Below are positions 2,854-29,101 of a DNA stretch of 64,000 bases, one piece after another (the first letter of the stretch is position 1; each line of letters begins with the position of its first letter). The notes below the pieces were generated by a model. The model saw only the letters and a list, made by a program, of their open reading frames with translations, had not been told where the DNA came from and did no database searches. This DNA comes from Escherichia coli (GTDB lineage Bacteria; Pseudomonadota; Gammaproteobacteria; Enterobacterales; Enterobacteriaceae). The stretch lies in NCBI RefSeq assembly GCF_022846255.1, contig NZ_AP025682.1, one strand, 5' to 3'. Both the position numbers and the translations under genes were made by a program.

Positions 2854-3354
2854 CTACTGGGAACGTGAGTTGCTACTACTCAATAGCTTCAACGATGAAC
2901 TTTTTTGCCATTGCGTCACGTCGCGCAACTGCTCCATTCGTTGTTGATGTTTCTCGTTTAAAACCGCTTGCTGCTCCGGCGTTAACAGGCGATACATTTG
3001 GTTGCGGACTTTTGCCATCTCAACCTGACGAGCAATTTGCTCATTCGCCATTTTTTCTGCCTGTGCGCGCACAGCGTTTTCATCAAAATTTTCTGCGGTG
3101 ACAAGGCGATGCATTGTCTCCAGTTCGCTAACATTAACAGGAGGCTGTTCGTGCCGGGCCTGTTGCATAAGATCTCGCATCTGCTGACGCTGATGTTCGG
3201 TTAAACTTATGCCGTCGAACATATGGCTCTGCGTACTGCGCTGCGTAAGTTCTTCACCCGGATGCCAGTTATCGCCTGAACCGACTTCAGCAGCGTGGCT
3301 TAATGAACTGACTGCCAGCGTTGAGGCCATGACGGCAGCGGTAACTATGCGCAT
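2854..3354 (-). CDS. cpxP: Periplasmic Cpx-pathway adaptor/inhibitor CpxP
   Basis: [24 protein letters not shown]... with two LTxxQ-like segments ([24 protein letters not shown]); divergent from cpxRA as in K-12; 166 aa from the second Met. Confidence 0.9.
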
Positions 3355-3503: not shown

Positions 3504-4202
3504 ATGAATAAAATCCTGTTAGTTGATGATGACCGAGAGCTGACTTCCCTATTAAAGGAGCTGCTCGAGATGGAAGGCTTCAACGTGATTGTTGCCCACG
3601 ATGGGGAACAGGCGCTTGATCTTCTGGACGACAGCATTGATTTACTTTTGCTTGATGTAATGATGCCGAAGAAAAATGGTATCGACACATTAAAAGCACT
3701 TCGCCAGACACACCAGACGCCTGTCATTATGTTGACGGCGCGCGGCAGTGAACTTGATCGCGTTCTCGGGCTTGAGCTGGGCGCAGATGACTATCTCCCA
3801 AAACCGTTTAATGATCGTGAGCTGGTGGCACGTATTCGCGCGATCCTGCGCCGTTCGCACTGGAGCGAACAACAGCAAAACAACGACAACGGTTCACCGA
3901 CACTGGAAGTTGATGCCTTAAGTCTCAATCCTGGTCGCCAGGAAGCCAGCTTCGACGGGCAAACACTGGAGTTAACCGGTACTGAGTTTACCCTGCTCTA
4001 TTTGCTGGCACAGCATCTGGGTCAGGTGGTTTCCCGTGAGCATTTAAGCCAGGAAGTGCTGGGCAAGCGCCTGACGCCTTTCGACCGCGCTATCGATATG
4101 CACATTTCCAACCTGCGTCGTAAACTGCCGGATCGTAAAGATGGTCACCCGTGGTTTAAAACCCTGCGTGGTCGCGGCTATCTGATGGTTTCTGCTTCAT
4201 GA
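3504..4202 (+). CDS. cpxR: Envelope-stress response regulator CpxR (OmpR family)
   Basis: MNKILLVDDDRELTSLLKELLEMEGFNVIVAHDGEQALDLL...; receiver domain plus winged-helix; 232 aa. Confidence 0.95.
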   Translation: MNKILLVDDDRELTSLLKELLEMEGFNVIVAHDGEQALDLLDDSIDLLLLDVMMPKKNGIDTLKALRQTHQTPVIMLTARGSELDRVLGLELGADDYLPKPFNDRELVARIRAILRRSHWSEQQQNNDNGSPTLEVDALSLNPGRQEASFDGQTLELTGTEFTLLYLLAQHLGQVVSREHLSQEVLGKRLTPFDRAIDMHISNLRRKLPDRKDGHPWFKTLRGRGYLMVSAS

Positions 4203-5572
4203 TAGGCAGCTTAACCGCGCGCATCTTCGCCATCTTCTGGCTGACGCTGGCGCTGGTGTTGATGTTGGTTTTGATGTTACCCAAGCTCGATTCACGCCAG
4301 ATGACCGAGCTTCTGGATAGCGAACAGCGTCAGGGTCTGATGATTGAGCAGCATGTCGAAGCGGAGCTGGCGAACGATCCGCCCAACGATTTAATGTGGT
4401 GGCGGCGTCTGTTCCGGGCGATTGATAAGTGGGCACCGCCAGGACAACGTTTGTTATTGGTGACCACCGAAGGCCGCGTGATCGGCGCTGAACGCAGCGA
4501 AATGCAGATCATTCGTAACTTTATTGGTCAGGCCGATAACGCCGATCATCCGCAGAAGAAAAAGTATGGTCGCGTGGAACTGGTCGGTCCGTTCTCCGTG
4601 CGTGATGGCGAAGATAATTACCAACTTTATCTGATTCGTCCGGCCAGCAGTTCTCAATCCGATTTCATCAACTTACTGTTTGACCGCCCGCTATTACTGC
4701 TGATTGTCACCATGCTGGTCAGTACGCCGCTGCTGTTGTGGTTGGCCTGGAGTCTGGCAAAACCGGCGCGTAAGCTGAAAAACGCTGCCGATGAAGTTGC
4801 CCAGGGAAACTTACGCCAGCACCCGGAACTGGAAGCGGGGCCACAGGAATTCCTTGCCGCCGGTGCCAGTTTTAACCAGATGGTCACCGCGCTGGAGCGC
4901 ATGATGACCTCTCAGCAGCGTCTACTTTCTGATATCTCTCACGAACTGCGCACCCCGCTGACGCGTCTGCAACTGGGTACGGCGTTACTGCGCCGTCGTA
5001 GCGGTGAAAGCAAGGAACTGGAGCGTATTGAAACCGAAGCGCAACGTCTGGACAGCATGATCAACGATCTGTTGGTGATGTCACGTAATCAGCAGAAAAA
5101 TGCGCTGGTTAGCGAGACCATCAAAGCCAACCAGTTGTGGAGTGAAGTGCTGGATAACGCGGCGTTCGAAGCCGAGCAAATGGGCAAGTCGTTGACGGTT
5201 AACTTCCCACCTGGGCCGTGGCCGCTGTACGGCAACCCGAACGCCCTGGAAAGTGCGCTGGAAAACATTGTTCGTAATGCTCTGCGTTATTCCCATACGA
5301 AGATTGAAGTGGGCTTTGCGGTAGATAAAGACGGTATCACCATTACGGTGGACGACGATGGTCCTGGCGTTAGCCCGGAAGATCGCGAACAGATTTTCCG
5401 TCCATTCTATCGGACCGATGAAGCACGCGATCGTGAATCTGGCGGTACAGGTTTGGGGCTGGCGATTGTAGAAACCGCCATTCAGCAGCATCGTGGCTGG
5501 GTGAAGGCAGAAGACAGCCCGCTGGGCGGTTTACGGCTGGTGATTTGGTTGCCGCTGTATAAGCGGAGTTAA
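4199..5572 (+). CDS. cpxA: Envelope-stress sensor histidine kinase CpxA
   Basis: 457 aa; H-box SHELRTPLTRL, HATPase region DDDGPGV...GGTGLGLAIV; start overlaps the cpxR stop (atga). Confidence 0.95.
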   Translation: MIGSLTARIFAIFWLTLALVLMLVLMLPKLDSRQMTELLDSEQRQGLMIEQHVEAELANDPPNDLMWWRRLFRAIDKWAPPGQRLLLVTTEGRVIGAERSEMQIIRNFIGQADNADHPQKKKYGRVELVGPFSVRDGEDNYQLYLIRPASSSQSDFINLLFDRPLLLLIVTMLVSTPLLLWLAWSLAKPARKLKNAADEVAQGNLRQHPELEAGPQEFLAAGASFNQMVTALERMMTSQQRLLSDISHELRTPLTRLQLGTALLRRRSGESKELERIETEAQRLDSMINDLLVMSRNQQKNALVSETIKANQLWSEVLDNAAFEAEQMGKSLTVNFPPGPWPLYGNPNALESALENIVRNALRYSHTKIEVGFAVDKDGITITVDDDGPGVSPEDREQIFRPFYRTDEARDRESGGTGLGLAIVETAIQQHRGWVKAEDSPLGGLRLVIWLPLYKRS

Positions 5573-23284: not shown

Positions 23285-23916
23285 AACGACGTGACACCAT
23301 CGTGCGCTACACCGCGCCGGAACGTATCAACCACTGGATCACCGCCTTCTGCTTCATCCTGGCGGCGGTGAGCGGGCTGGGCTTTTTGTTCCCGTCCTTC
23401 AACTGGTTGATGCAAATCATGGGCACACCGCAGCTGGCGCGCATTCTGCACCCGTTTGTCGGCGTGGTTATGTTTGCCTCGTTCATCATCATGTTTTTCC
23501 GTTACTGGCATCACAACCTAATCAATCGGGATGATATCTTTTGGGCGAAGAATATTCGTAAGATCGTCGTCAACGAGGAAGTAGGTGACACCGGGCGTTA
23601 TAACTTCGGTCAGAAATGCGTTTTCTGGGCGGCGATTATTTTCCTGGTTCTGCTGCTGGTGAGCGGCGTGATTATCTGGCGTCCTTATTTTGCGCCTGCT
23701 TTCTCAATCCCGGTGATCCGATTCGCGTTAATGCTGCATTCATTTGCCGCAGTGGCGTTAATTGTGGTTATCATGGTGCATATCTACGCCGCCCTTTGGG
23801 TGAAAGGCACGATTACCGCCATGGTGGAAGGATGGGTGACCAGCGCCTGGGCGAAGAAACATCACCCGCGCTGGTACCGTGAGGTCCGCAAGACAACGGA
23901 AAAGAAAGCTGAATGA
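23281..23916 (+). CDS. fdoI: Formate dehydrogenase-O cytochrome b556 subunit
   Basis: 211 aa; multi-TM; overlaps the fdoH stop (atga). Confidence 0.95.
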
Positions 23917-24842
23917 GTATTCGCATAATCCCGCAAGATGAGCTGGGTTCGAGCGAGAAACGTACGGCGGATATGATTCCGCCGTTATTGTTCCCTCGGC
24001 TCAAGAATTTATACAACCGCCGCGCCGAGCGTCTGCGCGAGCTGGCAGAAAATAATCCGCTGGGTGATTACCTGCGCTTTGCTGCGCTTATCGCCCACGC
24101 CCAGGAAGTGGTGCTGTACGACCATCCGCTGGAAATGGATTTGACCGCACGCATTAAAGAAGCCAGCGCACAAGGCAAGCCCCCGCTGGATATTCACGTT
24201 CTGCCGCGTGATAAGCACTGGCAAAAGCTGCTGATGGCGCTGATTGCTGAGCTGAAACCTGAAATGAGCGGCCCGGCGCTGGCAGTGATTGAGAATCTGG
24301 AGAAGGCATCGACTCAGGAGCTGGAAGATATGGCCAGCGCACTGTTTGCCTCTGATTTCTCGTCCGTCAGCAGCGATAAAGCGCCGTTTATCTGGGCTGC
24401 GCTGTCGCTCTATTGGGCGCAGATGGCTAATCTGATCCCCGGCAAAGCCCGCGCTGAATACGGCGAACAACGTCAATATTGCCCGGTATGTGGCTCTATG
24501 CCGGTGTCCAGCATGGTGCAAATTGGCACCACTCAGGGTCTGCGTTACCTGCACTGCAACCTGTGTGAAACTGAATGGCACGTAGTGCGCGTAAAATGCA
24601 GCAACTGTGAACAGAGCGGCAAACTGCATTACTGGTCGCTGGATGACGAACAGGCCGCGATTAAAGCCGAAAGCTGCGATGACTGCGGCACTTACCTGAA
24701 GATTCTTTATCAGGAAAAAGAACCGAAAGTTGAAGCCGTGGCAGATGACCTCGCCTCTCTGGTACTGGACGCGCGAATGGAGCAAGAAGGCTATGCCCGT
24801 AGTTCCATTAACCCGTTCCTGTTTCCGGGTGAAGGGGAGTAA
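23913..24842 (+). CDS. fdhE: Formate dehydrogenase formation protein FdhE
   Basis: 309 aa; paired CxxC motifs ([33 protein letters not shown]). Confidence 0.95.
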
Positions 24843-24930
24843 TCTCTGACGTTTTCCGGGTGGCGCTGGTCGCCCGGATTACAGCTCATAGGGTGTGACG
24901 ACACCTGCTATTCCCGCAAAATCTCTCGTA

Positions 24931-24975
24931 TTTCGCGAGGCGTTTTCCAGATATGATGTAACAGTTGCAGTTATT
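24931..24975. repeat. Copy A of a ~45-bp intergenic repeat
   Basis: tttcgcgaggcgttttccagatatgatgtaacagttgcagttatt; 36/45 identical to copy B; its 5' half matches copy C. Confidence 0.6.
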
Positions 24976-25057
24976 ATAAGTTCAAGTAAAACAGCCTTGT
25001 ATTAATACCAGAATAAGGGCATCTGGTTTTTTATATTCATGAATAAAAAAACTTTTG

Positions 25058-25276
25058 TCATTCCTTATGCTGCTTACATAGTTCTTCAACACCAACTGCC
25101 TCGTCCCTTTGCCTGCCGCCTTTTGCCTTACGCACCGGAAATTGCTGCCGCTCCAGATATTGCTCTACCGCTTCGCGTAAAATTGCAGAGCGCGAAACCT
25201 TACGCCATCCCCGAAGCTTGTTCAGCCGTTTAATTGCCTCTTCTGATAAATGAAGAAAAACCGTATTCATCGCCAT
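25058..25276 (-). CDS. yiiE: Ribbon-helix-helix (CopG-family) small regulator; I take it to be YiiE, but YiiE versus YiiF cannot be settled from memory
   Basis: MAMNTVFLHLSEEAIKRLNKLRGWRKVSRSAILREAVEQYLERQQ...; RHH beta-strand/helix pattern; 72 aa from the internal Met. Confidence 0.65.
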   Translation of the reverse strand: MAMNTVFLHLSEEAIKRLNKLRGWRKVSRSAILREAVEQYLERQQFPVRKAKGGRQRDEAVGVEELCKQHKE

Positions 25277-25370
25277 TACCACCACCTTACATATATTACT
25301 CATTAATGTATGTGCGAAAATTACGCCGGAAAGTTAATTAACGAAAGCGGATTTTTTCATATTGTTTTGT

Positions 25371-25415
25371 TTTTGCGAGACGGCATCCAAAGATAATGTA
25401 ACAGTTTCAGTTATT
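25371..25415. repeat. Copy B of the ~45-bp intergenic repeat
   Basis: ttttgcgagacggcatccaaagataatgtaacagtttcagttatt. Confidence 0.6.
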
Positions 25416-25671
25416 TCAATTGTTACTCAAAAATGGTTTATTACTTTTAATTAAGCGGGGGCACATCTACAGGAAAGAAACAACAAATAATAAGGATGAA
25501 TTATGGATGCTATAAATATTTTATATTCAAGAATATTTTTTGATTGGGTCTTCATTTGCTTCATCAGGATGGTGTACCCGAAAAAGTCAGCAGCTTTACC
25601 GCACCAGGGTTTAAGGTGAAATCTACCATTCATAACGACCGGTCAGTGCCGCACCAACCGGTCTTTAATTG

Positions 25672-25950
25672 TTAGTAGTAGTAAATTTGTGGATAACAGT
25701 CCGGGAACCAGACGATTCCTTCCGGATCATCCCCCTGCATTACCCGATGACATTGGCGTCGATCATCTGCGCGACGGCGAAGCGTAGTATAGAGCCGCTT
25801 CCATTCATGATCGCCCGGTGTACTGTAGTTTACCCAACAATCCATTGAAGGGTGACGCCATTTACCTGTAAGTGTTGGGATCCCTGAATGCTTATGCGGC
25901 TTCGCTTTACCATTACGATCCCTATCTTTACGCGTATTAAACGTGGACAT
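25672..25950 (-). CDS. Hypothetical small protein (92 aa), His/Cys/Trp-rich; possibly the 3' part of a frameshifted gene
   Basis: ORF MSTFNTRKDRDRNGKAKPHKHSGIPTLTGKWRHPSMDCWVNYSTPGDHEWKRLY...; AT-rich context; no recognisable family. Confidence 0.3.
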   Translation of the reverse strand: MSTFNTRKDRDRNGKAKPHKHSGIPTLTGKWRHPSMDCWVNYSTPGDHEWKRLYTTLRRRADDRRQCHRVMQGDDPEGIVWFPDCYPQIYYY

Positions 25951-26011
25951 TTTTAGTCTCCTGTTAAGAGTTCTAAAAATGTGCTTCCTTAAAATAGTTC
26001 ATCATTTTCCC

Positions 26012-26224
26012 TTAATTCGCATAGCGTGCTTTTGCACGAATTTCCGATACGCGGGGACCATTATGATAGCGTCGATGCCCACACATCCAACAAGAACAAA
26101 TACAGGGAGTACGAAAGCAAATACCTGATGCTTTTTTGCTTCCATCGCCTGCAGTGCGATAACGACAGCGGATTTTTTTTAATCGCACCATATGATGGCG
26201 ACGTTCAGCACGATTACGGGTCAT
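26012..26224 (-). CDS. Hypothetical Cys-rich small protein (70 aa), possible zinc-ribbon
   Basis: ORF MTRNRAERRHHMVRLKKIRCRYRTAGDGSKKASGICFRTPCICSCWMCGHRRYH...; same strand as, and 60 bp upstream of, the 92-aa ORF in a different frame. Confidence 0.3.
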   Translation of the reverse strand: MTRNRAERRHHMVRLKKIRCRYRTAGDGSKKASGICFRTPCICSCWMCGHRRYHNGPRVSEIRAKARYAN

Positions 26225-26308
26225 AGCAAAACTCCTGAGCAGGCGGCACTATGCCGCTTTCATAGGAGTTCTGAATGCTGGTGCTTTCTGTATGGCATAA
26301 CCATGCCT

Positions 26309-26599
26309 CTAACGGTTAAGTGCTTGCAGCACATGTTGCGGATCATTGGCAATCGCTCGCAGCAAAGCCTTTGCAGGCCCGGTCGGTGAACGTCGCCCCT
26401 GCTCCCAGTTACGCAACGTGTCTACGCTTACGGAAATAAGATCGGCAAATTTAGATTGTGACAACCCTGAAGCGCGGCGTATTTCTTTGATTTTCATAGC
26501 ATCAACTTCAAAAGTCCGTGAAGGCTGTCGCGTTCCTTCAATAATTTCATTCATCTGGGCCATGCTGTGAGTCAACCGCTCAAAAAGTGCCTTATCCAT
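26309..26599 (-). CDS. HTH (XRE-type) antitoxin, HigA-2-like
   Basis: HTH segment IKEIRRASGLSQSKFADLISVSVDTLRNWEQGRRSPTGPAKALL; start codon abuts the stop of the upstream toxin ORF. Confidence 0.7.
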   Translation of the reverse strand: MDKALFERLTHSMAQMNEIIEGTRQPSRTFEVDAMKIKEIRRASGLSQSKFADLISVSVDTLRNWEQGRRSPTGPAKALLRAIANDPQHVLQALNR

Positions 26600-26911
26600 T
26601 TACCACCTCGTATTTAACAACCGGAGCATTGCTTTTTCCTGGGGAGACAGATCATCTTTAATACCCTTACGATAAATAAGCAGTAATCTGATCTCATAAT
26701 GTTTAACCTGATGAAAGTAAATAACCCTGACACCAGCACGTTTCCCCTTTCCTCCTGAGACCCATCGAACCTTTCTTAACCCACCAGTTTCAGGTATTAC
26801 CTCACCATAGTCAGGATTCAAGGCCAGGAAAAACTGAAAACGACTGAATTCATCGTCGTTCAGCAGTTTTTGAACATCTTCAGTAAAAATTTCCGTTTCG
26901 ATGAAGAGCAT
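26600..26911 (-). CDS. Type II toxin, RelE/ParE superfamily, HigB-2-like
   Basis: 103 aa; ...ETGGLRKVRWVSGGKGKRAGVRVIYFHQVKHYEIRLLLIYRKGIKDDLSPQEKAMLRLL... matches the conserved core of the Vibrio HigB-2 family; toxin-first gene order. Confidence 0.7.
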   Translation of the reverse strand: MLFIETEIFTEDVQKLLNDDEFSRFQFFLALNPDYGEVIPETGGLRKVRWVSGGKGKRAGVRVIYFHQVKHYEIRLLLIYRKGIKDDLSPQEKAMLRLLNTRW

Positions 26912-27030
26912 AATTATACGCCATTGGCTTAGAGTAACAATCCTTTTTGTACGTCATTGACGTACCATTGAAACCACTAGCTTACTGATAGTGCTCCAGC
27001 AAAACCACGTCTCTGCCGGGTTTGTCTTTA

Positions 27031-27053
27031 CATTTGCGAGGCGCTTTCCAGAT
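27031..27053. repeat. Copy C (5' half only) of the ~45-bp intergenic repeat
   Basis: catttgcgaggcgctttccagat, 21/23 match to the 5' half of copy A. Confidence 0.5.
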
Positions 27054-27127
27054 TTTTCACGCCCGTGAATTTCCCTGTATCCATCCAGCAAAAACGGGTG
27101 TATAAAACTGTACATTCATACAGCAAA

Positions 27128-28048
27128 ATGAGTTCTACTATGGCACTGGAAAAAGGAATTGCAGAGTTAGTCGAAGAGTTTATCGCTGCGGGTCGCCCCT
27201 CATCGCGCCAACAAAGTATTACGCAGCGCAGAGAGGGCTATATCGCCAGCGCTGTCCTTGCGGGTGAGACAGAAACGCGGGTAGATATTCAGACTATCGA
27301 ACTTGAAGGGATGACCTTACGAATAGTGTCACCGCTGAATGCCCCGACATTACTCCCGACGATAATTTATTACTACGGTGGCTGTTTTGTTAGCGGCGGG
27401 TTCGCAACTCACGACAACCAGCTGCGCCAGTTAGCCTATTACGGGCAATGTCGGATTATTGCCGTCCAGTATCGGCTGGCACCGGAACATACTTTCCCCG
27501 CCGCCCATGATGATGCACAACGAGGTGCAGAATTAGTCCGGCAACACGCCGAACGACTCGGCGTTGATAAACAACGAATAACTCTTGCCGGTGACAGTGC
27601 GGGAGGGCATCTGGCGCTGGTAACTGCTTTGCGATTGAAGCGTGCTGGCGAGTGGCAACCAGCACAACTCATCTTAATTTATCCTATGCTTGATGCGACT
27701 GCGCATTTCGAAAGCTACATACGCAATGGTCACGATTACATCATCACACGCGACACTTTACTGAGCGGCTTTGAGATGTACCTGCCAGGCATTGAACGCA
27801 GGCATCCTGAAGCCAGCCCTATTTGGCGCAATGATTTCAATGGCTTGCCACCTGTACATATCATTACCGCTGAATACGACCCACTTTGCGATGAAGGTGA
27901 AGCGTTGTATCACCGCATGACAGGGCAAGGAGTGCAATGCACCTGCCAACGCTACCTTGGCGTTATCCACGGATTTTTTCAGTTAGGTGGTATCAGTGAG
28001 GCTGCGCGATCGGCGCTACGGGATGTTGCCTGGAGAGCGGGAAGGTAA
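27128..28048 (+). CDS. Alpha/beta-hydrolase, hormone-sensitive-lipase-type esterase (Aes-like)
   Basis: Oxyanion-hole motif YYYGGCFVSGG (HGG-type) and nucleophile elbow GDSAGG; C-terminal HGF; start placed at ATG 27128 (MSSTMALEKG), alternatives at 27065 (GTG) and 27140. Confidence 0.7.
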   Translation: MSSTMALEKGIAELVEEFIAAGRPSSRQQSITQRREGYIASAVLAGETETRVDIQTIELEGMTLRIVSPLNAPTLLPTIIYYYGGCFVSGGFATHDNQLRQLAYYGQCRIIAVQYRLAPEHTFPAAHDDAQRGAELVRQHAERLGVDKQRITLAGDSAGGHLALVTALRLKRAGEWQPAQLILIYPMLDATAHFESYIRNGHDYIITRDTLLSGFEMYLPGIERRHPEASPIWRNDFNGLPPVHIITAEYDPLCDEGEALYHRMTGQGVQCTCQRYLGVIHGFFQLGGISEAARSALRDVAWRAGR

Positions 28049-28111
28049 CTCCGGACCAGGGCCCAGAAAAGGTTTTCAGATTGAAAACCTTTTCAGTCAA
28101 GTAAAACGCCC

Positions 28112-29101
28112 CTACTCTTCTTCGTTTCCGCCCTCTTCATACGGACCAAATGGCTTCGCGGGCAGAACGATATACGTGCCTTCAAACACTGCACCCGGCG
28201 TCTCGTCGCCAAAGATTTCGACCTGCATTTGTACCCGCGCTTTTCGTCCGCGCGCCAGACGGTCGAGATCGCCACTTAAGGCACCAAGGTCGGCTACCGC
28301 ATGGGGTTTACCACTAATCGGTTTGCTATAGCGGATATGCGCATCCGCCAGAATAATCGTTCCGCCGAGGTGGCGTTCGCGCAGCATCAGCCAGATAAGC
28401 CCCCAACCGGTGAGCGTAGCCAGCGAGAATAAACTCCCGGCAAACAGCGTGTGATGCGGATTCTGATTGCCGGTTTCCGGCATGGTGGTGATAAATTTTT
28501 GCCCGGTATATTGCTGAATGCGCACACCCATTTTTTCGCTTAACGGGATATGTTCATACCACGCTTGCTGGAGCTGGGCGCACCAGTCGCCGCGATGAAG
28601 AATATCATCCAGAGTGGCAACAGGTTTTATCATCAAAAAATGGCGAATCGGCGTGGTGGTTGGCGTGGTGATTTCACCCTGATTAACAAACCCCAGCTTG
28701 GCGAAAAACTCCACCGCGTCTTCACGGGCGCTACAGGTCACGCGCTTAACGCCTTCCTGACGTGCCACCGACTCCAGGGTCATCGCCATCAGCGTGCCTA
28801 ACCCTTTGTCCTGCACGTCGGGATGAACGGCCATAAAGCGAATGGACGCTTCATTGTCGGCATTAATATACAGTCGGCCTACCGCTACCAGATTACCCTG
28901 CTCGTCGACGACCATCTGGTGATGCGCCATCGCATCCCACGCGTCGCGTTCCGAACCTTTTGGTTGATGCAGGGGCTTACGCAACATTTCCCAGCGAAAC
29001 TGATAGTAACGCTCTAATTCTTCTTCTGTTTGTGGAACCCGAAGGTGATACATAGCGATACTCTCTCTTGTTTCCCGTGACAACCCTGGAAGCTGGCTCA
29101 T
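28112..29101 (-). CDS. yiiD: GNAT acetyltransferase / hotdog thioesterase fusion protein YiiD (FabY)
   Basis: 329 aa; [56 protein letters not shown]... Confidence 0.9.

Follow-up and report, generated by a model that had tools for sequence, protein, structure and literature searches.

A HigB-2-type toxin-antitoxin pair in a probably ancestral, eroding locus between fdhE and fabY of Escherichia coli

Introduction

In a 64,000-nucleotide stretch of Escherichia coli DNA (NCBI RefSeq assembly GCF_022846255.1, contig NZ_AP025682.1; the whole stretch is called the window, and positions are counted along it), the core genes fdhE and fabY (yiiD) are separated by a variable segment of 3.2 kb. This segment is best explained as an old accessory locus which predates the split of Escherichia and Klebsiella, is undergoing erosion, and comprises four independent modules, including a toxin-antitoxin (TA) pair of the HigBA-2 type. 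We assign a probability of about 0.8 to this reading, and under it the segment is not a recent island. The evidence comes from homology and conserved residues, from gene order, synteny and distribution, and from scars of deletion; toxicity, neutralization, the operator and the physiological role are inferred. The other three modules would be a divergently transcribed family IV carboxylesterase, a pair of small genes called famA and famB here, and yiiE, a ribbon-helix-helix (RHH) gene whose PIN toxin partner appears to have been lost. A preliminary description of the segment had treated it as a small accessory island; all of the open reading frames (ORFs) listed there were recovered in place.

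The HigB-2/HigA-2-type pair

The 103-amino-acid (aa) product of higB-2 is an apparently intact toxin of the HigB-2 type and a predicted ribosome-dependent mRNA endonuclease. In a phmmer search, residues 2-99 aligned without gaps to residues 4-101 of five HigB-2 chains in the Protein Data Bank (PDB), with E values from 1.6e-19 to 1.6e-18, and by BLASTP the protein is 43% identical to HigB-2 of Vibrio cholerae (VcHigB2, of the HigB-2/HigA-2 pair VCA0468/0469; PDB 5JA8, 5JA9, 5JAA, and 5J9I; PMC5416850). The catalytic residues R51, R64, Y82, and K84 of VcHigB2 align with R49, R62, Y80, and K82, so that all four are kept. Alanine substitutions at Arg51, Arg64, Tyr82, and Lys84 were found to cut the activity of VcHigB2 170- to 3000-fold (Hadzi et al. 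2017, PMC5416850). Both toxins also have a Gly/Lys-rich β2-β3 loop and a hydrophobic β3, which reads IIYY in VcHigB2 and VIYF in the E. coli toxin. Moreover, the protein matches phrog_5869 (E 4e-27), it shows a dN/dS (ratio of nonsynonymous to synonymous substitution rates) of 0.14 within E. coli, and it is still ~72-73% identical to its Klebsiella orthologue at saturated dS.

The 96-aa protein encoded directly downstream is a predicted HigA-2/NadS-type antitoxin. It is composed of an N-terminal segment of ~30 aa followed by a helix-turn-helix (HTH) domain of the HTH_3 family (E 3.1e-9). Residues 31-89 match the HigA-2 chains of V. cholerae (E 1.8e-8 to 1.8e-7), residues 1-93 match phrog_2104 (E 8e-26), and the score against the NCBIfam model NadS is 60.7 bits at a cut-off of 60. 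The N terminus is covered by the phrog_2104 and NadS profiles, and dN/dS against Klebsiella is 0.05-0.06. The toxin gene precedes the antitoxin gene on the same strand and abuts it, an arrangement known as a reverse TA operon. The preliminary description had proposed a HigB-2/HigA-2-like pair with an XRE-type HTH antitoxin, and both parts of that proposal are borne out by the PDB matches, the catalytic residues, the toxin identity and the HTH_3 domain.

By homology with V. cholerae HigBA-2, HigB-2 would enter the ribosomal A site and cut mRNA under translation by means of R49, R62, Y80, and K82. HigA-2 would bind the toxin through its N-terminal segment and so block cleavage, and its HTH dimer would repress the operon, probably at a palindrome upstream of higB-2. 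Once the antitoxin was degraded or no longer made, the toxin would be expected to stop translation. The palindrome (26949-26965) consists of two perfectly matching 8-bp arms, GTACGTCA and TGACGTAC, separated by a single base, and lies 38 nt before the higB-2 ATG. It overlaps a possible -35 element. Klebsiella retains the core ACGYCA-N-TGACGT, which overlaps a good promoter match there, TTGACG-16-TACTAT. The palindrome is a likely candidate for the HigA-2 operator.

Two described systems are closest to this pair. VcHigBA-2 shares the full-length gap-free toxin alignment, the catalytic residues, the toxin-first gene order and an antitoxin with a C-terminal HTH domain. However, VcHigBA-2 is encoded in superintegron cassettes, whereas the E. 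coli pair occupies a chromosomal locus between core genes. In addition, the N terminus of the E. coli antitoxin has no detectable similarity, the best solved match of the antitoxin is Atu1735 rather than HigA-2, and the E. coli toxin, unlike VcHigB2, scores below significance for the Pfam family PF06296, which holds HigB-2 (PMC11980606). The HigBA2 system from an Acinetobacter baumannii plasmid belongs to the same toxin family (~44% identity) and is also a reverse TA system (Armalyte et al. 2018, PMC5906591). There the toxin is an RNase, and both the antitoxin and the complex repress the promoter (PMC5906591). In contrast to this plasmid-borne pair, which stabilizes plasmids, the E. coli pair was found on the chromosome in 2634 of its 2636 copies.

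Several observations weigh against this model of the pair. PF06296 matched residues 43-101 of the toxin with an i-E of only 0.0062 and 17.2 bits in a single-sequence hmmscan, and for the Klebsiella orthologue the precomputed Pfam mark is "weak". None of the NCBIfam toxin models matched the 103-aa protein. Together, the weak Pfam score and the missing NCBIfam match are probably the reason why the protein is named "hypothetical" in most of the RefSeq records seen. A PDB search with only residues 1-40 of the antitoxin found nothing at E up to 10, and since no solved chain matches the N terminus, the mechanism of neutralization is carried over by analogy only. In front of the higB-2 ATG, a Shine-Dalgarno sequence could not be recognized. 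A near-consensus TTGTTA-16-TATAAT at 26940-26913 on the minus strand is the best sigma70-like match upstream of the gene. It was rejected as the higB-2 promoter for two reasons: it stops just 1 nt short of the ATG, so that the full toxin could not be made from a transcript starting there, and Klebsiella does not keep its -10. In strain ERP001 (L001, 3640-3912) the toxin gene carries a stop codon at Q91 and an R81H substitution, which indicates that toxin activity is not required everywhere. Finally, literature searches turned up no experiments with the E. coli pair.

Two side observations belong here. RefSeq names the truncated 90-aa toxin of ERP001 a "RelE/ParE family toxin", unlike the intact 103-aa protein in most records. 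A "HigB2" of E. coli APEC179, possibly the same protein as the 103-aa toxin, is mentioned in a structural context in the literature.

An alternative is that the pair is a decayed remnant, with a toxin that is inactive or unexpressed and an antitoxin that survives as a transcription factor. The lack of a clear Shine-Dalgarno sequence or usable promoter directly before higB-2, the nonsense mutation in one strain and the "hypothetical" label would agree with this. However, the toxin retains its full length along with the four catalytic residues, it is under purifying selection, and 2579 of the 2636 genomes which carry the pair have it at ≥99% identity to the window. Decay is therefore considered unlikely, and the pair is treated here as a further, so far uncharacterized member of a known TA family, to which the locus adds famA-famB and a shared 18-nt upstream element.

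Distribution and history of the locus

The distribution was surveyed in 5426 complete E. coli genomes. The fdhE and fabY flanks were matched in all but one of them, and at least 80% of the region 24500-28500 was present in 2572. The TA pair occurs as a single copy at this site in 2636 genomes, among them ST131 (sequence type 131) and other extraintestinal lineages, and the complete famA-famB pair in only 1269. The site has at least six arrangements. The first is that of the window. In the second, yiiF and yiiE are present together with the TA pair and the esterase, but the small genes have been deleted; the third is the K-12 type. The fourth, an ST131 type, additionally carries a DUF6708 gene pair. 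The fifth combines divergent small genes with three further ORFs and either has or lacks the TA pair, and the sixth contains two other hypothetical genes.

K-12-like genomes have yiiF, yiiE and a 39-codon pseudogene fragment in place of the segment, which agrees with the K-12 content given in the preliminary description. Compared with a K-12-like locus (L002), homology of the window breaks at 24905/24931, where ~600 bp with yiiF (L002 1907-2507) are skipped. Positions 24931-25707 are common to both at only ~81% identity. In place of 25708-28111, K-12 has 475 bp of AT-rich filler that is unrelated to the window and contains the pseudogene fragment, and homology resumes at 28112. Neither near-identity of the segment to K-12 nor a toxin without any match among RelE/HigB-family hidden Markov models, the two outcomes which the preliminary description had named as grounds against itself, was found.

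The same gene order is found in another genus. In K. spallanzanii and in a Klebsiella sp., the locus reads fabY-esterase-higB2-higA2-famA-famB-RHH-PIN-fdhE, with a PIN gene that is truncated in the former and intact in the latter. Compared with the window, the flanking proteins are 92% identical and the esterase is 77% identical, whereas the values are ~72% and 85% in the TA pair and 67% and 61% in the small proteins. Moreover, two types of E. coli locus bear scars of deletion. K-12 keeps a degenerate ~36-nt remnant of the famB 3′ end (L002 ~3190-3228) beside the filler, and in the E. coli type which lacks the small genes the 3′ end of famB is joined to the 5′ end of famA (L028 ~2040-2250). 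Based on the Klebsiella synteny and these scars, loss and replacement explain the variation at the site better than insertion. One reservation is that such synteny could also be produced by homologous recombination through the conserved flanks, which would weaken the case for an old locus.

A recent genomic island between fdhE and fabY, with K-12 as the empty site, would account for several properties of the segment. Its G+C content is 45.9%, lower than in the window as a whole (50.7%) and in the flanking genes (~54%), and drops to 0.31-0.38 across 25300-25700, a stretch whose AT-richness had been pointed out in the preliminary description. The segment is found in only about half of E. coli genomes. 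TA genes of the HigB-2 family are common on plasmids: relatives of the toxin at ≤48% identity were matched in 881 plasmid records, especially of Acinetobacter (~44% identity, tblastn). However, features of a mobile island were not found. No ORF of the segment resembles an integrase or insertion sequence (IS), as had been stated before, and there was neither a transposase nor an att-type target. No tRNA gene lies within 18-34 kb of the segment, and no direct repeats flank it, the only notable ones being internal copies of 18-45 nt in promoter regions. In Klebsiella, identically ordered genes are enclosed by the same core genes, and they are deeply diverged, with dS at saturation. K-12 is not empty, as it holds a famB remnant and a different filler, and these scars largely refute an island. 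The six or more structural variants at the site also argue against a single recent acquisition. Recent acquisition is thus improbable, and the earlier term "accessory island", with a mechanism of acquisition that was not evident, gives way to loss and replacement at an old locus.

Table 1. Features of the variable segment and its flanks in the window (positions in nucleotides).
Feature	Position	Strand	Remarks
fdhE	23913-24842	+	Core gene, one flank of the variable segment
Spacer fdhE-yiiE	24843-25057		Without yiiF; orphan copy of the 18-nt element retained at 24932-24949 (-)
RHH ORF (yiiE)	25058-25303	-	81 aa from the first ATG; RefSeq yiiE is 72 aa, 25058-25276
AT-rich spacer	25304-25671		35.6% G+C; contains the yiiE upstream region
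famB, 92-aa ORF	25672-25950	-	Basic protein, unnamed family
famA, 70-aa ORF	26012-26224	-	Very basic protein; phrog_4499
Hairpin	26227-26273	-	Between higA-2 and famA; 3′ arm holds the famA Shine-Dalgarno sequence
higA-2-like antitoxin, 96 aa	26309-26599	-	Annotated nadS; directly abuts the toxin gene
higB-2-like toxin, 103 aa	26600-26911	-	RelE/ParE superfamily
17-bp palindrome	26949-26965		Candidate HigA-2 operator
18-nt element TGGAAAGCGCCTCGCAAA	27033-27050	-	122 nt upstream of higB-2
Alpha/beta-hydrolase ORF	27065-28048	+	RefSeq-equivalent start at 27140 gives 302 aa
Inverted repeat	28066-28094		Perfect 13-bp arms, 3-nt loop
fabY/yiiD	28112-29101	-	Core gene, other flank

Independence of the modules

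It had also been suggested that the toxin, the two small proteins and the RHH regulator could be more than a plain addiction module. A rival reading along these lines is one integrated multi-component system, such as a defense system with a TA-like effector. All of these genes are co-directional on the minus strand, their order is retained in Klebsiella, and the 18-nt element precedes both higB-2 and the RHH genes. Furthermore, famA-famB is found elsewhere beside dnd and other defense-like genes. In three contigs (L015-L017, ~3620-4294) the pair adjoins a dndB-dndC-dndD (DNA phosphorothioation) cluster, and the famB cluster concerned is named from Salmonella enterica. As a side observation, a ScoMcrA-like HNH gene lies near the small genes in two of these three contigs.

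However, the modules also occur apart. famA-famB was found without the TA pair in three loci (L011, L013, and L019), the TA pair was found with the small genes deleted, and the two differ in frequency by the counts given above (2636 and 1269 genomes). The small genes are also found in unrelated contexts, and no constant third partner was seen in the neighborhoods of nine other genomes and several metagenome contigs. In a search of all locus proteins against the PADLOC defense models, the toxin, FamA, FamB, YiiE and the esterase were unmatched, and the antitoxin gave only weak generic HTH-domain matches (e.g., HTH_VI, RmrA, and capH). Finally, a hairpin that holds the Shine-Dalgarno sequence of famA accompanies this gene rather than higA-2. 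A single integrated system is thus quite improbable, and since the TA pair, the small genes and the RHH genes occur independently, little is left of the earlier suggestion beyond the 18-nt element discussed below.

Two of the loci with famA-famB and no TA pair (L011 and L013, 3009-4274) have an additional peculiarity beside fabY. A "421-aa" ORF is found there which is made of tandem ~60-aa units, …LPCRPDKRSASG…. Its translation resembles that of REP/BIME-type repeat DNA (repetitive extragenic palindromic sequences and bacterial interspersed mosaic elements), and if so the ORF is presumably a repeat array rather than a gene.

The famA-famB pair

famA and famB are two real genes from separate, widespread and unnamed families which travel as a pair. 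Both products were correctly described as rich in Cys, His or Trp: FamA has 6 Cys and 4 His with an isoelectric point (pI) of 11.1, and FamB has 3 Cys, 5 His, and 4 Trp with a pI of 9.5. FamA has the motif RAERRHH...CxCSCWMCGH, its near-invariant residues being RRHH...CSC..C..R, and FamB is marked by its N terminus (MSTFNTRKDR) and a C terminus ending in YYY or YYW. Residues 3-67 of FamA match phrog_4499 (E 1.4e-13; relatives reach E 1.5e-20), a family with no assigned function or structure. No other family was found for FamA in Pfam (searched with a 40-sequence alignment), NCBIfam, or PADLOC, and FamB had no match in Pfam, NCBIfam, PHROG, or PADLOC. AlphaFold2 models were weak, with a predicted local distance difference test score (pLDDT) of 73 and a predicted template modeling score (pTM) of 0.37 for FamA and a pLDDT of 59.5 for FamB; Foldseek gave no match in the PDB for the weak FamA model.

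Homologues of FamB are found in Klebsiella, Salmonella, Yersinia, Pantoea, and others, all of them named "hypothetical". The long form of FamB (92-98 aa) had famA directly upstream in every case examined, and a shorter form of 76-83 aa is found by itself, on small plasmids and on integrative elements. RefSeq annotates famB in the records inspected and famA in only some, several records being without it.

The two ORFs are adjacent and co-directional, lie 61 nt apart in different frames, and are similar in composition, all of which would agree with the earlier proposal that they were possibly one frameshifted gene. Further analysis did not support this. The two remain separate (70 and 92-95 aa), each with its own start and stop codon, in alleles from E. 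coli and Klebsiella at 59-74% identity, and in the distant contig L009 they are again found side by side. A profile of the concatenated proteins matched 872 representative proteins. Among the best 150 of these, nearly all have a length of 60-100 aa and correspond to just one of the halves, mostly that of FamA (~70-100 aa), and no protein covers both. The few longer proteins among the same 150 contain the FamA half alone, extend at most ~37 positions past the junction and continue into unrelated C-terminal tails. Moreover, at saturated dS, dN/dS is 0.12-0.13 for famA and 0.10-0.24 for famB against alleles that are 61-67% identical. The frameshift is accordingly rejected, given separate families, own starts and stops in divergent alleles and unrelated loci, and purifying selection on each ORF in its own frame.

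An AGGAG lies 8 nt before the famA ATG and provides a strong Shine-Dalgarno sequence. It is part of the hairpin (inverted repeat I2) with a predicted RNA folding energy of -38.7 kcal/mol (z = -3.2). Conservation of the hairpin sequence extends to Klebsiella and to an E. coli locus lacking an upstream TA pair, which indicates that the hairpin belongs to famA and not to higA-2. No compensatory changes were counted in it, and no known RNA family matched 24700-28300 at E up to 1. The hairpin may control the translation of famA. A Citrobacter locus was seen to have a hairpin of different sequence at the same place before famA.

The esterase and yiiE

The ORF at 27140-28048, transcribed divergently from higBA-2, is assigned by homology to the family IV (hormone-sensitive-lipase-like) carboxylesterases, as the preliminary description had done. 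PDB esterases matched the 302-aa protein down to E 4.5e-51. As in PestE (PDB 2YH2/3ZWQ) and Aes of E. coli, an Abhydrolase_3 fold is indicated by homology, and the nucleophile motif GDSAG (GDS153AG) is present together with D247 and H277 as the triad Asp and His. It differs from these enzymes in the oxyanion-hole motif, which is YGGC (residues 79-82; 27374-27385) instead of the HGGG with which PestE was aligned. The NCBIfam model LipP1 matched with E 1.6e-70 and 237 bits at a cut-off of 350, and the protein stays below the cut-off of every named NCBIfam esterase model. The inverted repeat (I10) on the 3′ side of the gene lies between the convergent esterase and fabY, within the variable segment, and is absent from K-12. 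It is possibly a two-way terminator, a role that is uncertain because the repeat is not G+C-rich.

yiiE is best described as a putative orphan VapB-like RHH antitoxin or regulator without a toxin partner. The window protein is 90% identical to K-12 YiiE and 41% identical to K-12 YiiF, gives weak RelB/CopG profile matches, and is 46% identical (E 3e-15) to a Klebsiella RHH antitoxin whose gene precedes or overlaps a PIN toxin gene at the same site. Its earlier identification as a CopG/RHH gene thus stands. The Klebsiella RHH-PIN (VapBC-type) genes, the K-12 genes yiiE and yiiF and the window gene have the position beside fdhE and the upstream 18-nt element in common. The Klebsiella antitoxin differs in its C terminus, which is unlike that of YiiE, and in the PIN gene that follows it. 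In the window, which is also without yiiF, the interval from yiiE to fdhE has no toxin-family ORF, and for this reason yiiE is called an orphan. A sigma70-like site is found at 25419-25390 in the spacer upstream of yiiE. In the SlyA-responsive table of one study, K-12 yiiE is listed among the genes raised by SlyA overexpression, and SlyA is described there as acting against H-NS repression at two operons other than yiiE (PMC5797941).

A shared 18-nt upstream element

The same 18-nt element is found upstream of several genes at this site. Three copies are in the window (27033-27050, 25372-25389, and 24932-24949, minus strand), two in L002 (2509-2526 and 2947-2964), and two in L006 (1319-1336 and 2797-2814). 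They precede higB-2, yiiE, K-12 yiiF, K-12 yiiE, Klebsiella higB-2, and Klebsiella vapB by 93-125 nt in the orientation of the gene, and the orphan copy at 24932-24949, TGGAAAACGCCTCGCGAA, marks the former place of yiiF. The core T.TGGA...CG.CTCGC.AA is invariant in seven of seven copies from two genera, while the flanks diverge, and 0.06 copies would be expected by chance in the window.

The spacing TGG-N9-(T)CGC would fit a sigma54 -24/-12 promoter. A list of K-12 RpoN sites from genomic SELEX (systematic evolution of ligands by exponential enrichment) has none at yiiE or yiiF (PMC8743547), which counts against this reading and makes it a minor possibility. Alternatively, the homologous RHH proteins or some other factor could use the element as an operator. 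Under either reading, the TA operon and the RHH genes would be linked in regulation. On this basis it can be proposed, tentatively and with considerable doubt, that the element unites the HigBA-2 operon and the RHH/VapB genes as a co-regulated set. Just as tentatively, famA-famB may have a selfish, regulatory or anti-defense function of its own. The element is the sole support left, and a weak one, for a locus that is more than a plain addiction module.

Implications

As an old locus subject to loss and replacement, the segment would clearly illustrate how an accessory region of the chromosome can resemble an island and yet be ancestral and decaying. Should the tentative proposal on the 18-nt element and the small genes be true, famA-famB would be an undescribed, widespread two-gene cassette, one of whose proteins has a CxCxCxxC-type motif, found in variable regions and beside dnd. 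The shared 18-nt element would offer a testable handle on cross-regulation between neighboring TA-type modules. Moreover, about half of the sequenced E. coli genomes appear to carry an intact HigB-2-type toxin that is absent from K-12. Since this toxin is labeled "hypothetical" in most records, counts of TA systems that are drawn from K-12-based lists would miss it.

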